Positions 10,064-39,853 of a DNA stretch of 64,000 nt are shown in pieces. Source of the stretch: Candidatus Omnitrophota bacterium (GTDB lineage: Bacteria > Omnitrophota > Gorgyraeia > Gygaellales > Profunditerraquicolaceae); NCBI GenBank assembly GCA_963805065.1, contig CAWDSS010000010.1, forward strand, positions 920,359 to 984,358, written 5' to 3'. Numbering within the stretch: the stretch's first letter is position 1; each line of letters begins with the position of its first letter. The notes under the pieces were generated by a model, which was not told the origin of the DNA, made no database searches, and was given only the letters and a program-made list of their open reading frames with translations. The translations under genes and the position numbers were made by a program.

Positions 10064-10232
10064 CCCCCACTGCTTCGCTTTGCGAAGCAAAGCGTGGGGG
10101 TTAATTCGCGCATATAACTTACTCACACTTACGTGTTCGTAAGTTTATTGTTTGAAGATCCCCTCTCAAGCAAGAGAACCGAGGGGATTAATTCGCACAA
10201 TGGCTTACTCACACTTACATGTTCGTAAGTCA
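10064..10232 (+). repeat. Two tandem hairpin-plus-box modules
   Basis: Each unit is a GC-rich hairpin (CCCCCAC...GTGGGGG; ATCCCCTC...GAGGGGAT) followed by TTAATTCGCRCA and CTTACTCACACTTACRTGTTCGTAAGT (itself a hairpin, ACTTAC/GTAAGT). Confidence 0.6.
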
Positions 10233-10269
10233 TGTGCTCATTAATTGTAAACCAGAAATACTAATTAAG

Positions 10270-10297
10270 TTGACAATTCCCCCGGCATTTATATAAT
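10270..10297 (+). promoter_or_regulatory. Consensus sigma70-type promoter upstream of the TonB-dependent receptor leader
   Basis: TTGACA (10270-10275), 16-nt spacer, TATAAT (10292-10297). Confidence 0.6.
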
Positions 10298-10306
10298 AAA
10301 TGTCGG

Positions 10307-10492
10307 GTTTTTATTTTGTGGGTCCTGCCGAGGCTTGTTTTCGCAGCATCGCTCGATTTTCCCCAGCGTGGAAAATCTTCGCTCAAGCGGAAGCCTTCGC
10401 TCTTGGATACTTTTCTAACGAGGCAAACCATACCCGCTCCGGCTTCCTTATGTGCTGCTCAAATCAAGCCTCGTCACCCACAAAATAAAAAC
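10307..10492 (+). repeat. Structured palindromic element, copy 1 (candidate ncRNA or leader element)
   Basis: The termini are reverse complements over ~30 nt. Internal 8-bp hairpin GATTTTCC-CCAGCGT-GGAAAATC (10355-10377) and stem GGAAGCC...GGCTTCC. Homologous copies at 12370-12556 and 37616-37877. Confidence 0.7.
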
Positions 10493-12369: not shown

Positions 12370-12556
12370 ATTGATTTTTTGCGGGTCCTGCCGAGGCACG
12401 TTCCTCGCGTCATCGCTCGCAATTCCCCAGCGTGGAATTGCTTCGCTCAAGCGGAAGCCTTCGCTCTTGGATACTTGTTTAACGAGGCAAACCATGCCCG
12501 CTTCGGCTTCCTTATGTGCCGCTCGTAACATGCCTCGTCACCCGCAAAAAATCAAT
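12370..12556 (+). repeat. Structured palindromic element, copy 2
   Basis: Same orientation as copy 1. Hairpin GCAATTCC-CCAGCGT-GGAATTGC (12419-12441). The termini ATTGATTTTTTGCGGGT and ACCCGCAAAAAATCAAT are mutually complementary. Confidence 0.7.
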
Positions 12557-12675
12557 TTTAATGCTCGAAGGTAAGTCAGATTCATTTACAGTACATTACA
12601 ACTACTTTTCAAGCGCCTTGTATATTAGCAAGGCTCTTCGCTTCGCTCAGAGTTAAATTTTCTTGCAACTACGTT

Positions 12676-12867
12676 AATGAAAATTTAAGTGTCTTGGAGT
12701 GATGCCAAGCGGGCTTCTATAGGGGTCCCCGCGAGGGGTGTGTGCTAGGAAAATTTGACGAGCACACACCCCGAAGCAGGGGAAACTTTCGCCCCGCGAC
12801 AAACACTCCAAGTCAGGCCCCGCGTAGTGTAGGGCGCGAGAAGAATAAATAACTTTAAATTTTCATT
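12676..12867 (+). ncRNA. GC-rich nested-stem domain (candidate structured RNA, class unknown)
   Basis: Closing stem 12676-12689 / 12853-12867; 9-bp stem CTTGGAGTG (12693-12701) / CACTCCAAG (12804-12812); 12-bp stem GGGGTGTGTGCT (12735-12746) / AGCACACACCCC (12761-12772); several G4/C4 tracts. Confidence 0.35.
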
Positions 12868-12904
12868 TTTATAGATATAATATTTGTAGCAAAGGAGAGA
12901 ATGA

Positions 12905-36034: not shown

Positions 36035-36106
36035 GCCGAAGTAGCTCAGTGGTAGAGCGCGGCCCTGAAAAGGCCGGCGTGGGGGGTCCGATTCCCTCCC
36101 TCGGCA
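36035..36106 (+). tRNA. tRNA-Phe (GAA)
   Basis: Manual cloverleaf: acceptor GCCGAAG/CCTCGGC (one A-C mismatch), D arm GCTC-AGTGGTA-GAGC, anticodon stem CGGCC/GGCCG, loop CTGAAAA, T arm GGGGG-TCCGATT-CCCTC. No encoded CCA. Confidence 0.8.
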
Positions 36107-36166
36107 CTTAATTTTAGTTCAACTGCCGATCCTGAACGAAGTGAAGGATCTCGGTACTTAATTTTA
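36100..36166 (+). repeat. Direct duplication of the tRNA-Phe 3' end plus 10 nt (50-bp period)
   Basis: CTCGGCACTTAATTTTA (36100-36116) and CTCGGTACTTAATTTTA (36150-36166) flank the hairpin GATCCT-GAACGAAGTGA-AGGATC (36128-36150). Confidence 0.65.
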
Positions 36167-37093: not shown

Positions 37094-37538
37094 ATGAAGA
37101 AGGCATTTCTTGCATTATTTGCTGTTGCGTTCGTTACTTCTATGTGTTTTGCCGAAGAGCCGGTCATCAGCGATTATCCACTCAAGCTTCCAGCAATGCT
37201 GCTGCTCCAGCGCAAGTTCCCAGCGCTACTGCTGCTCCAACCCAACCGCCAGCCAGCACTACTTCTACGGCCTCGGCTAAAACCACTACTTTTACCGGTA
37301 AAGTAGATTCTGTATCGAGCGGGATAGTATGGGGTAAATCCGCAGATTATCGTCAAAGATGATAATGGACAGGGGACGACCTTTACGGTAGCAAGTGACG
37401 CTACTGTCATTGGTAAAGATGGAAATTCGACTACTGTAGATTGGATAAACAAGGATGATAAAGTCAGCATAGACTACATTGCGAATCACGGACGGTAGCA
37501 AAACGGCTAAATCCATTAAAGTGTCAGCAGGTTGGTAG
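37094..37538 (+). pseudogene. Small secreted protein gene disrupted by at least 3 frameshifts
   Basis: The signal peptide (frame of 37094), the Ala/Pro/Thr linker (frame of 37144), the beta-rich body (IIVKDDNGQGTTFTV...) and the tail (DGSKTAKSIKVSAGW) lie in different frames. It is related in design to the intact gene at 47568-47903. Confidence 0.6.
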
Positions 37539-37615: not shown

Positions 37616-37877
37616 AAATCTTCTCGCTGAGTCGCGTCTGTCTTGTCTGTGTTTCTCGGGAACGCTCGCATTTCCCCAGCGTGGAAATGCTTCGCTCAGG
37701 TCGGCTGCGTCGCTCTCCCGCATCCGGGCCGTATATAAATCCGTTTTTTTAATTTAGGAGCCGGATGCGGGAACCGTGCCCGCTCCTTGCCTCCATGTCC
37801 CTCGAAATCACAGCCAAGCCAGCCGCTCATAACTATGTTAGCTCGAAACATGCCTCGTCACCCGCTGGCGAGAATTT
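37616..37877 (+). repeat. Structured palindromic element, diverged copy 3
   Basis: Shares ACGCTCGCATTTCC-CCAGCGT-GGAAATGCTTCGCTCAG and the 3' end CTCGAAACATGCCTCGTCACCCGC with copy 2. The middle is replaced by an 11-bp stem CCCGCATCCGG...CCGGATGCGGG. Confidence 0.6.
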
Positions 37878-38031
37878 ATAGTTGAATAACCCACCAATTA
37901 GCAGTAGAATATCCTTGACAATGGATTGAATATAATGTATAAAATAGACAATAATTCAGTGTGGTATGTTTCGAAGGGGGAACTGCCACGTTAAAATAAC
38001 TAAAACCTTCGCTCATAAGGCGGAGGTTTTT

Positions 38032-38817
38032 ATGTTTAATGACATGAAAGAAAGCATAAGTCTTCTAGAAATTAAACTCCCAAAAGAATTTGTAAATAAA
38101 ATAATTTGTGGTGATGCCATTGAGGTTATGAAGAAGATCTCTACCGGGTCGATAGATTTAGTCGTTACCTCTCCTCCTTATAATCTCAAGAATTCTACCG
38201 GAAATGGCATGAAAGATGGAAGAGGGGGAAAATGGGCAAATGCTGCTTTGCAGAAGGGATATACTCATCATAATGATTGTATGCCTCATGATGAATATGT
38301 AAGATGGCAACGAGATTGTTTAGTAGAAATGATGAGGATTATTCCCGATACTGGAGCCATATTCTATAACCATAAACGCAGGGTTCAAGGTGGTTTATTA
38401 CAGGATCGACAGGATATTATTGAAGGTTTTCCTGTTAGGCAAATCATCATCTGGAAGCGTAAAGGGGGTTTAAACTTTAATGCAGGCTATTTTCTCCCAA
38501 CCTACGAAGTTATTTATTTGATAGCAAAGCCAAAATTTAAACTTGTGCCTAAAGCCAATGCGTATGGCGATGTTTGGGAATTTACTCAAGAAATGAATAA
38601 TGATCATCCCGCAGCATTTCCAGTTAATCTGATTGAAAGGATTGTCTCATCTACAAATGCAAAAATTGTTCTTGATCCATTTATGGGCTCTGGTACTACA
38701 GCAATCGCCGCTATAAATTTCAAGAGAAATTTTGTCGGTATTGATATTTCTCCCGAATATTGTGAGATGGCAAGAAAAAGAATTAAGCAGCATCAAGCCC
38801 AAGGTAAACTTTGGTAA
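38032..38817 (+). CDS. Beta-class DNA methyltransferase, probably N4-cytosine-specific
   Basis: Motif IV TSPPYN lies N-terminal to motif I DPFMGSGTT (beta order). GGAGG SD 5 nt before ATG 38032; the ORF is also open from 37966. Confidence 0.85.
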   Translation: MFNDMKESISLLEIKLPKEFVNKIICGDAIEVMKKISTGSIDLVVTSPPYNLKNSTGNGMKDGRGGKWANAALQKGYTHHNDCMPHDEYVRWQRDCLVEMMRIIPDTGAIFYNHKRRVQGGLLQDRQDIIEGFPVRQIIIWKRKGGLNFNAGYFLPTYEVIYLIAKPKFKLVPKANAYGDVWEFTQEMNNDHPAAFPVNLIERIVSSTNAKIVLDPFMGSGTTAIAAINFKRNFVGIDISPEYCEMARKRIKQHQAQGKLW

Positions 38818-38821
38818 TCCT

Positions 38822-39604
38822 ATGGTAAAGAAAACAGTTGTTTATACTAAACAAAATATAATAGATAGGCTTAAGGAAATTAGTGCGTTAGGTTGGATTA
38901 AAAACGCTCGTCCTGGCAATGCTGGCGGTGTTGGGAATACATTAGAAGACTTGTTAGGTATAGAAGAAAATAATTTGCCTATTCCTAATGCAGCAGAATG
39001 GGAATTAAAATGCCAAAGGATAGGTACGGATTCTTTAACGACACTTTTTCACATGGAACCTTCTCCGCGCGCTATAGGGTTTGTACCTAAGGTGCTTTTG
39101 CCACTTTATGGATGGAAGCACCAAACAATACCAGGAGAAAAGAGCTTTAGACAGACTATAAATGGTTTGTCTTGCTCCGATAGAGGCTTTAAAGTTGTTG
39201 TTGATCGGGCTGCTCGTAAGGTGCTGATTTCTTTTAATGCTAAATGCGTATCCGATAAACATAGAAAATGGCTTAATTCTGTAGAAAAGAAAATAGGCTT
39301 GGCTGAATTGAATCCTCAACCATACTGGGGATTTGATGATCTTTTCCATAAGGCAGGAACAAAGCTGCTGAATTGTTTTTACATACGTGCTGAAGCGAAA
39401 ACTGAAAAAAGAAAAGAATATTTTTGGTATAAAGAAATTATGATTTTGCAAAAGTTTAGTCTGGATAAATTTATAAAGGCTATTGAAGACGGCTTTATTC
39501 TCGTAGATTTCGATGCTCGCACAGGCCATAACCACGGGACAAAATTTAGACTTAGACAAGATAGAATGCCAGAATTATATGAAGATGTAAGGAGGATTGA
39601 ATAG
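38822..39604 (+). CDS. Type II restriction endonuclease, MvaI/BcnI (MutH-like) family candidate
   Basis: Starts 4 nt after the methylase stop. GGVGNTLEDLLGIEENNLPIPNAAEWELKCQR matches the MutH/Sau3AI/BcnI-type G..lE..lG..ENN...D/E.ElK core as I recall it. Confidence 0.65.
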   Translation: MVKKTVVYTKQNIIDRLKEISALGWIKNARPGNAGGVGNTLEDLLGIEENNLPIPNAAEWELKCQRIGTDSLTTLFHMEPSPRAIGFVPKVLLPLYGWKHQTIPGEKSFRQTINGLSCSDRGFKVVVDRAARKVLISFNAKCVSDKHRKWLNSVEKKIGLAELNPQPYWGFDDLFHKAGTKLLNCFYIRAEAKTEKRKEYFWYKEIMILQKFSLDKFIKAIEDGFILVDFDARTGHNHGTKFRLRQDRMPELYEDVRRIE

Positions 39605-39682
39605 AAATACTATTGTCATAGTGCAAATTCTTGTATTGGAGTGAGCAATGAGGTTAAAGTAGATTAAATTCAAAGGCAACTT

Positions 39683-39710
39683 AAAAAACCAGGCAAATGC
39701 CTGGTTTTTT
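39683..39710 (+). terminator. Rho-independent terminator after the R-M pair
   Basis: AAAAAACCAGG-CAAATG-CCTGGTTTTTT. Confidence 0.8.
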
Positions 39711-39853
39711 AATCCTGAGCGGAGCGAAGGATCTTTCTAGAAGATAGGGGGTTGCCTTTTTTATTCCTACCTTGTAGATGAGCATGTGGATAAGGCGGTG
39801 GAGAAATTGGAGTTTTAAAATATTGAGAGTGTTCTAGTTATAAGGAGGATTTA

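Follow-up and report, generated by a model that had tools for sequence, protein, structure and literature searches.

The window analysed here is a 64,000-nt stretch of a contig from Candidatus Omnitrophota that carries three copies of a structured intergenic element, which we have named E1; L-numbers denote the loci of relatives. Copies 1 and 2 lie on either side of the gene for a TonB-dependent receptor downstream of birA, and copy 3 adjoins a type II restriction-modification pair, 136 nt upstream of it (Table 1). An earlier sequence-only reading of the window had placed copies 1 and 2 on the same strand and described their termini as reverse complements of each other; the sequence agrees on both points, since the outer arms form perfect 17-bp inverted repeats in both copies, and copy 1 has a further 16-bp arm that is 88% paired. 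The same reading had reported a diverged third copy of 262 nt whose termini pair only weakly. A homologue is present there, but its real extent is 201 nt and the remainder is a distinct fragment, the solo 3' arm of an element of the copy-2 type; the termini had appeared to pair weakly because this solo arm had been counted with the copy, which is closed by a stem of its own. The 8-bp hairpin with the identical loop CCAGCGT and compensatory changes in its stems was recovered in all three copies, and the paired changes between copies in the terminal stem, as well as the stem GGAAGCC/GGCTTCC, were likewise found as described. Relative to dinucleotide shuffles, the three window regions fold with z = -7.5, -5.4, and -4.1, and the covariance model described below matches these three copies and no others within the window.

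A search of species-representative genome contigs with a 26-nt core pattern returned 22 loci at one to four matches per genome; nearly all of these are in Candidatus Omnitrophota metagenome-assembled genomes (MAGs), with one labelled Margulisiibacteriota and one Planctomycetales. A looser core returned at least 120 loci in metagenome contigs. The covariance model, which was built on 22 sequences, identifies 28 sites in the genome set and 110 among the metagenome matches listed, with a GC content of 0.47-0.79 for the matches; in all, E1 has more than 150 homologues across Omnitrophota genomes and metagenomes. No match to the core was found in viral contigs, and no E1 match was found in phage, plasmid and viral collections. 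Since the core and the covariance model recover so many further loci, E1 is no chance feature.

The E1 unit is 160-205 nt long and is organized around a three-way junction. P1, a long stem with internal loops, continues into P2 to give a terminal stem of 25-35 bp; P2 closes the junction, which bears P3 (8 bp, with the near-invariant loop CCAGCGU) and an arm composed of P4 and P5, where the length of P5 separates type A, with a short P5 (copies 1 and 2), from type B, with a long one (copy 3). CGCTC motifs occur four to five times per unit, within the unpaired joints. In the 22-sequence alignment, approximately 45 positions do not vary, and almost all of these are in the loop and the joints; the invariant joint sequences are CGCUCG, CUUCGCUC, UCGCUCU, GAACCRUGCCCGC, and ACGUGC.

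Covariation was evaluated on 105 distinct sequences over 50 base pairs with 500 shuffles, and it is strong. Standard pairs are present in 86.5% of cells, as compared to 38 to about 48.5% when the 3' partners are slid by one to three columns; P3 is paired in 99.4%. Both-sided changes are found at 48 of the 50 pairs, none of the 500 shuffles reaches any of these measures, and a smaller sequence set agrees. The suggestion from the sequence-only reading that selection acts on secondary structure and not on the overlapping open reading frames (ORFs) thus holds, with a fold conserved in 105 sequences and reading frames that are not: over both strands, the best frame is an open one in 42 of 108 copies, no frame exceeds 39%, and the lengths lack period-3 variation (34, 37, and 43 copies in the three classes modulo 3). 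A protein-coding small ORF is ruled out by this lack of a conserved frame together with the aperiodic lengths.

The sequence-only reading could not assign the element to a known RNA family, and our scans lead to the same result. Rfam 15 applied to the whole window at the gathering threshold reports two tRNAs and nothing else, a scan of both strands of the three copies at E <= 10 reports nothing relevant, and a scan of 18 related loci reports only rRNA, tRNA, and group I introns. The group I introns are located at L003 4882-5088, where the intron interrupts the 23S rRNA gene in an Omnitrophota MAG, and at L011 3439-3638. No description of any non-coding element was found in the literature on RNA motifs in Omnitrophica/Omnitrophota. 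The E1 family is undescribed in Rfam 15 and in the literature found.

Table 1. Coordinates of E1 copies, their helices, and associated features (window positions unless a locus number is given).
Feature	Position	Strand	Remarks
E1 copy 1, type A	10307-10492	+	covariance-model match 10314-10485, 156.8 bits
Copy 1, extended terminal stem P1	10307-10323 with 10476-10492	+	17 bp, perfect
Copy 1, P3 hairpin	10355-10377	+	loop CCAGCGT at 10363-10369
Copy 1, P4	10389-10395 with 10441-10447	+	GGAAGCC/GGCTTCC
E1 copy 2, type A	12370-12556	+	covariance-model match, 156.0 bits
Copy 2, outer arms	12370-12386 with 12540-12556	+	17 bp, perfect
Copy 2, P3 hairpin	12419-12441	+	loop at 12427-12433
E1 copy 3, type B	37630-37830	+	201 nt; covariance-model match, 129.6 bits, E = 6e-28
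Copy 3, P1	37634-37651 with 37809-37826	+	
Copy 3, P3	37668-37690	+	
Copy 3, P5	37716-37772	+	long hairpin
Solo 3'-arm fragment	37842-37865	+	from a copy-2-type (type-A) element; CTCGAAACATGCCTCGTCACCCGC
Sigma-70-type promoter	10270-10297	+	TTGACA-16-TATAAT, 12/12 match; upstream of the TonB-receptor gene
birA terminator hairpin	10281-10307	+	overlaps the promoter; its T-tract, 10308-10317, is the outer 5' arm of copy 1
Z, very stable long hairpin, ~200 nt	12641-12877	+	~85 nt past copy 2, before the 96-aa ORF
Family X, ~140 nt	L012 652-799, L004 3778-3924, L014 1467-1612, ~25 other loci		always 3' of E1
Family Y, ~190 nt	L005 4685-4872, L011 6086-6258, L112 8751-8930, ~15 other loci		usually 30-40 nt past the E1 3' end

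Comparison of the copies with their relatives reveals repeat-like behavior, as of hairpin DNA that moves slowly and now and then. A 455-nt composite consisting of a type A unit, a spacer, and an inverted type B unit is found at two unrelated places in one MAG, with homology that ends exactly at the outer ends of both terminal stems; one of the two composites also bears a solo 3' arm. Solo 3' arms follow full copies at window copy 3, L007, and L013, and a solo 5' arm precedes the L021 copy. The spacer between malQ and ttcA is a hotspot: it holds one copy in L155 and L156, none in L154 and L149-L153, and an inverted pair in L021 (952-3878), L027 (4618-8101), and L059 (1559-2669). The genes enclosed by these pairs are a DUF5131-containing set, a 711-aa reverse transcriptase with a 437-aa partner, and two small unknown proteins; in L149-L153 the same spacer carries cargo (a DUF6036 pair) without E1. 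The L155 copy is most similar to the inverted right-hand copy of L021, which implies that whole elements invert. Over evolutionary time, E1 copies have been gained, lost, inverted, duplicated, and truncated to solo arms or arms-only minis.

Copies 1 and 2 are both at the birA-TonB receptor locus. The gene order birA, TonB-dependent receptor, 96-aa ORF, mnmA, nadA is kept in relatives whose receptor is 58-68% identical; given this conserved synteny, the receptor is a resident gene, and we excluded it as cargo of the two copies. The birA-TonB and TonB-96-aa spacers are 457 and 562 nt long in the window and 76 and 50 nt long, and element-free, in L145; those of L143 and L147 hold other contents. 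At the copy-2 position, L143 has a 66-nt arms-only mini, which recurs in the same genome with identity over 67 nt, and a full E1 is found further on. This full L143 copy shares 90.5% identity with copy 1 although it occupies the other spacer, as compared to a nucleotide identity of 69-77% for the flanking genes. Copy 2 of the window starts 28 nt past the receptor stop codon. Upstream of copy 1, the promoter, in the form TTGACA-16/17-TATAAT, is common to all four genomes (window, L143, L145, and L147). Because it lies upstream of copy 1, this copy is certainly an insertion in the 5' untranslated region (UTR) of the receptor mRNA, transcribed from the plus strand, provided that the conserved promoter is functional. 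To the left of copy 1, the T-tract is ancestral, being present in L143 and L145, and the sequence to the right, AAAATAAAAAC, is an inverted copy of that T-tract; the terminal stem of copy 1 has therefore been extended into its flank after insertion.

Two other features of the birA-receptor spacer were observed. The sequence TGTAAACC-N15-GTTGACA at 10246-10275 overlaps the -35 box of the receptor promoter and is also kept in L143, L145, and L147; by comparison with the E. coli bio operator, it looks like a BirA (biotin) operator. This suggests that the 607-aa TonB-dependent receptor may belong to the biotin regulon. Between birA and the promoter, a unit of ~55 nt occurs twice (10090-10144 and 10177-10230, 85% identical) with the pattern GGGxTTAATTCGCxCA...ACTTAC...GTAAGT..., and a related palindromic unit is located at the equivalent place in L147. 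On the other side of the receptor gene, the arms of the hairpin Z resemble reverse-complemented E1 arms of L044, L100, and L058, a weak link. Z is missed by the covariance model and by the E1 hidden Markov model (HMM), nhmmer connects it to the L044 copy only (E = 8e-4), and the scan of the whole window at the gathering threshold gives it no Rfam match. With a borderline link and with both model and HMM negative, Z was rejected as a fourth E1 copy; by the likeness of its arms, it may be a degenerate inverted E1 partner.

E1 is polar with respect to its surroundings. In 68 of 84 copies the nearest gene is closer at the 5' end than at the 3' end, with median gaps of 50 and 170 nt (Wilcoxon p = 1e-6), an asymmetry that holds in sense and antisense copies alike. 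Two further families accompany E1 on the same relative strand, mostly no more than 150 nt away; X takes the 3' side in all 29 cases and Y in 18 of 20. X has a long closing stem AAAAGTTTC...GAAACTTTT, a conserved CAAGGNTTTAYGRCGAGCGAGAG, and flanks with an A-run and a U-run that are terminator-like in both directions; Y is a long-stem element with GAGCGAGC-type motifs. Neither X nor Y has an Rfam family. Both bear GAGCG-type motifs, the complement of the CGCTC of E1, and the frequency of GAGCG per 245 nt is 0.86 in 3' flanks vs 0.14 in 5' flanks. Further, X read backwards resembles, by eye, the P2 region of E1. From this resemblance, X and Y may be distant inverted relatives of E1. Of the loci with two E1 copies, 12 are convergent, none divergent, and two tandem, to which the tandem window copies are added; the spacing ranges from ~40 nt to 3.7 kb, and about 7-8 of these loci are independent after allowing for orthology and duplication. 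Convergent doublets sometimes bracket variable defence-type genes. Singlets account for 111 of the 157 copies.

The genes next to E1 are housekeeping genes of many kinds. The largest clusters (QueH, QueA, and an ORF6N protein) each make up 9 of ~140 loci, and the commonest Pfam family in the 137 nearest-neighbor proteins is ORF6N, with six members. Relative to both neighbors, 46 of 84 copies are in the sense orientation, 25 antisense, and 13 mixed. These heterogeneous neighbors and the variable orientation exclude a riboswitch or cis-regulatory leader for the TonB receptor or for any other gene class. There is no promoter at a fixed distance from E1; on neither strand are promoter-like sites enriched towards E1, and any tendency is for them to point away from it. 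A strong promoter is present at copy 1 alone, and as an E1 promoter this candidate was rejected, as it belongs to the receptor gene and is kept in relatives without E1. Both strands of E1 end in an A-run and not a U-run; with neither a positional promoter nor a terminator-type U-run, an independent small-RNA gene is ruled out. Insertion behind intrinsic terminators was also rejected, since a terminator hairpin abuts the 5' end in just 10 of 113 copies, as was a replication-linked orientation, which matches the GC skew of the flanks in just 18 of 28 copies.

Around copy 3 the gene order differs in relatives, and orthologous comparison is uninformative there. The restriction-modification pair (37966-39604) comprises an N4/N6 methyltransferase and a MvaI/BcnI-family endonuclease; it begins a stretch of low GC content (0.30-0.38, 38 to 47 kb), probably an acquired island, that has copy 3 at its edge and lies ~2 kb downstream of tRNA-Phe (36035-36107). 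After the endonuclease gene, positions 39680-39735 contain a canonical terminator, AAAAAACCAGGCAAATGCCTGGTTTTTT, followed by TGAGCGGAGCGAAGG, a motif of the type present on the E1 reverse strand and in X and Y. In the region 37094-37500, which is located between tRNA-Phe and copy 3, the plus-strand ORFs 37094-37306 and 37144-37362 look like one frameshifted gene for a small secreted Ala/Thr/Pro-rich protein.

As to which molecule and strand are folded, we lean towards DNA over RNA because G·U and A·C are about equally frequent and because the orientation to genes is variable. With P4 and the last P5 pair set aside, 74 cells hold G·U and 85 hold A·C, ~2% each; an excess of G·U in P4 is an artefact of mis-aligned type-B sequences. 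In RNA families, G·U is usually accepted much more readily than A·C. The observed symmetry fits selection or hairpin-templated correction of DNA, or the use of both strands. The plus strand of E1 is C-rich with pyrimidine-rich joints, most of its mismatches are Y·Y, and its conserved 2x2 loop UC/UC corresponds to tandem G·A on the minus strand; the reverse complement also yields the better consensus fold. Opposed to the reverse strand as the folded strand are the predicted plus-strand transcription of copy 1 and the 2:1 bias towards the sense orientation.

We tentatively interpret E1 as a REPIN/ERIC-like, structure-dependent, non-autonomous hairpin-forming intergenic DNA element of Candidatus Omnitrophota, a reading that we regard as plausible while stopping short of calling it probable. 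In favor of it are the fold and its invariant positions, gain and loss at orthologous sites, the solo arms and minis, the duplicated composite, the high identity of the L143 copy at a different spacer, the inversion at malQ-ttcA, the polarity, the parity of G·U and A·C, a preference in orientation of only ~2:1, the lack of promoter enrichment towards E1, and the inverted copy of the T-tract to the right of copy 1. The recognized form would be a folded single strand, most likely of DNA. An invariant loop on a variable stem, together with the CGCTC repeats, argues for a specific partner that reads this folded strand; such a partner could be a trans-encoded, structure-specific enzyme, HUH/Y1-transposase-like or recombinase-like, for which REPIN/RAYT would be the model. 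Hairpin-templated copying (template switching) could keep the arms complementary and extend them into the flanks. Copies inside transcription units would be passively transcribed and fold as very stable RNA, and the receptor mRNA would have copy 1 in its 5' UTR and copy 2 in its 3' UTR; the folded RNA may affect mRNA processing or stability, though this would not be the reason for the existence of E1.

Several observations weigh against this interpretation. In all 25 of the 25 copies, the better fold is that of the reverse strand, by a mean of 9.9 kcal/mol, an asymmetry that would be superfluous in a pure duplex-DNA model, and the ~45 loop and junction positions are constant across backgrounds of 47-79% GC, which is the usual signature of functional RNAs. 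The sense orientation is favored by ~2:1, and copies are retained at syntenic sites (queA/queH/tgt at 9 loci and malQ at 5 loci). Copy number appears low, as seen from the one to four matches per representative genome. No transposase or recombinase family is present among the 25 commonest Pfam families of the 137 nearest-neighbor proteins, and no transposase or recombinase is found among the genes enclosed by E1 pairs. The arms pair within a copy and yet differ between copies of one genome (e.g. GAGGCTTG, GAGGCACGTT, and GTCTTGTCTGTG), unlike classical transposase-binding terminal repeats. Target-site duplications were not seen: at copies 1 and 2 the flanking repeats run in inverted and not in direct orientation, and the ends of the L013/L009 composites have none. 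An ordinary transposable element of the miniature inverted-repeat kind (MITE), the case that the sequence-only reading had set against its own, would bring target-site duplications and a cognate transposase, and neither was found, the latter among the 137 neighbors and the enclosed genes; the classical MITE was rejected on the unconserved arm sequences and the lack of a direct target-site duplication.

The serious rival is that E1 is a functional structured RNA, either a cis-acting UTR element or a processed protein-binding RNA, an explanation we consider rather unlikely. In the first case it could serve as a 3'-end structure, a processing or stability signal, or a structured C-rich Rho loading platform; in the second, a protein would be bound through CCAGCGU and the CGCUC joints. 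The repeat-like dynamics would be ordinary gain and loss of RNA genes. Five covarying helices with invariant joints speak for this rival, and E1 has a GC content of 52-60% within surroundings of 37-48%, is more conserved than its flanking genes, and is kept at syntenic sites. Its position is also in keeping with transcription: E1 is typically found ~40 nt past a stop codon, more often sense (46) than antisense (25), a canonical terminator rarely lies between gene and E1 (10 of 113), the promoters of downstream genes lie beyond E1, and copy 1 is within a 5' UTR if the conserved promoter works. Against this, ~30% of copies (25 of 84) are antisense to both neighbors, some of them 11-50 nt from a start codon, and E1-X modules are sense in 12 cases and antisense in 8, with neither a conserved promoter or terminator nor a consistent gene association. 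The preference of RNA for G·U over A·C is missing, the transcribed plus strand is the C-rich one with pyrimidine-rich joints while the other strand folds better, and solo arms, minis, and inverted doublets are atypical of RNA genes.

A quite improbable alternative is that E1 is a folded-DNA recombination site for gene cassettes, of the attC or Xer type, with DNA entering at the 3' boundary. Such a site would account for the polarity, for the solo 3' arms, and for variable genes lying inside convergent pairs; different genes are indeed found inside the inverted pair at malQ-ttcA in three relatives, copy 3 adjoins a restriction-modification pair, and extra DNA gathers 3' of E1, with solo 3' arms after full copies. 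The hotspot itself speaks on the other side, since L149-L153 have cargo but no E1 and the single E1 copies of L155 and L156 lack a partner, and the TonB receptor between copies 1 and 2 is a conserved syntenic gene and not a cassette. Neither an integrase near E1 (among neighbors and enclosed genes) nor the attC core sites RYYYAAC/GTTRRRY were found. Very improbable, in our estimation, is a functionless, decaying palindromic relic in which complementarity stems from hairpin-templated repair and conservation from recent descent. The lack of a wobble asymmetry, the very clean stems, and the palindrome that reaches into the flank would be accommodated by it; the loop and joints, however, are near-invariant in more than 130 copies, in contrast to stems that have been replaced many times over at GC contents of 47-79%, and a neutral relic would lose the loop and joint sequences first. 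The hairpin-forming DNA element that we favor, the structured RNA, and the recombination site are not mutually exclusive, since a mobile hairpin can act on the mRNAs it has entered.

A bolder proposal, which we hold to be improbable, is that E1, X, and Y are the folded ends of a structure-dependent mobile system in which convergent pairs move accessory or defence genes and singlets and minis are remnants. Here, T-shaped DNA hairpin ends with GCTC-type repeats and a nick-site-like loop would be read in single-stranded form by a nuclease or recombinase, and the cargo would include restriction-modification, reverse-transcriptase, and DUF5131 sets. That E1 is a new class of protein-binding or catalytic RNA stands on the same footing as this mobile system.

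Whichever of these applies, E1 is a well-supported and readily searched structural marker in an uncultured phylum, whose 26-nt core and covariance model match more than 150 places, and it indicates that hairpin repeats far more elaborate than REP/ERIC can persist phylum-wide at low copy number. Its presence in the UTRs of housekeeping mRNAs, e.g. that of an apparently BirA-controlled TonB receptor, makes an influence on expression likely. If the partner were a DNA enzyme, E1 would represent a new type of mobile element tied to defence-gene hotspots; if the partner were an RNA-binding protein, or the RNA catalytic, it would represent a new RNA class.

Among known systems, the orphan structured RNA motifs (Rfam 'Gene; sRNA' (small RNA) and 'Cis-reg') share with E1 strong covariation and GC richness relative to the genome; E1 differs in being outside Rfam 15, in its repeat-like dynamics, and in its lack of strand and gene consistency. 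The attC sites of integrons resemble E1 in recognition based on fold and not on sequence, in covarying stems, in their position at gene ends, and in their variable cassettes. E1, however, lacks R''/R' core sites, its ends being TTTTGCGGG ... CCCGCAAAA, and no integrase domain is found among its neighbors; further, attC sites form same-orientation arrays while E1 forms convergent pairs, and the core sequence of E1 is conserved while the interior of attC is not. HUH nucleases act on hairpins such as the T-shaped terminal repeats of parvoviruses, with GAGC/GCTC repeats, and rolling-circle origins with a conserved hairpin loop and iterons. By analogy, E1 has a T/Y shape of ~150 nt, GCTC-type repeats, a variable stem that bears an invariant loop, and inverted copies at segment ends; it differs in that no Rep/HUH gene was found and in that it resides in chromosomal spacers between housekeeping genes.

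Closer in kind are the ERIC/IRU, BOX, RUP, and Correia-type repeats, which are intergenic imperfect palindromes of 100-170 bp that are often transcribed and occur in either orientation. They are MITE-like, have internal-insertion variants, fold as RNA, and can affect the flanking mRNA; E1 is likewise a hairpin-forming intergenic repeat. These ERIC-type families have conserved terminal repeats, usually with a TA duplication, occur in tens to hundreds of copies, and are bound to a genus or family, whereas E1 has variable arms on an invariant core, no duplication, and a distribution over many Omnitrophota species. REPINs, finally, are extragenic and non-autonomous, with an inverted doublet that folds in single-stranded DNA or mRNA as the likely replicative unit (PMC3116915, PMC3337134); their singlets and fragments resemble remnants, and their inheritance is mostly vertical and long-lived (PMC3116915, PMC3337134). 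REPIN doublets also take insertions of DNA (PMC3116915). The REP unit is a simple palindrome of 20-40 nt with a GTAG/CGTC tag, as compared to a three-way junction of 160-205 nt with invariant loops in E1; REPINs number tens to hundreds per genome, as compared to one to four E1 matches per representative genome, and no RAYT-like gene was found beside E1 among the 137 nearest-neighbor proteins. The likeness lies in the inverted two-copy loci (12 convergent, 0 divergent, and 2 tandem) and in the partners X and Y on the 3' side, although most E1 copies are singlets. The best fit among these comparisons is that E1 belongs to an undescribed superfamily of hairpin-forming, non-autonomous intergenic DNA elements, as a much larger and more elaborate counterpart of REPIN/ERIC repeats.

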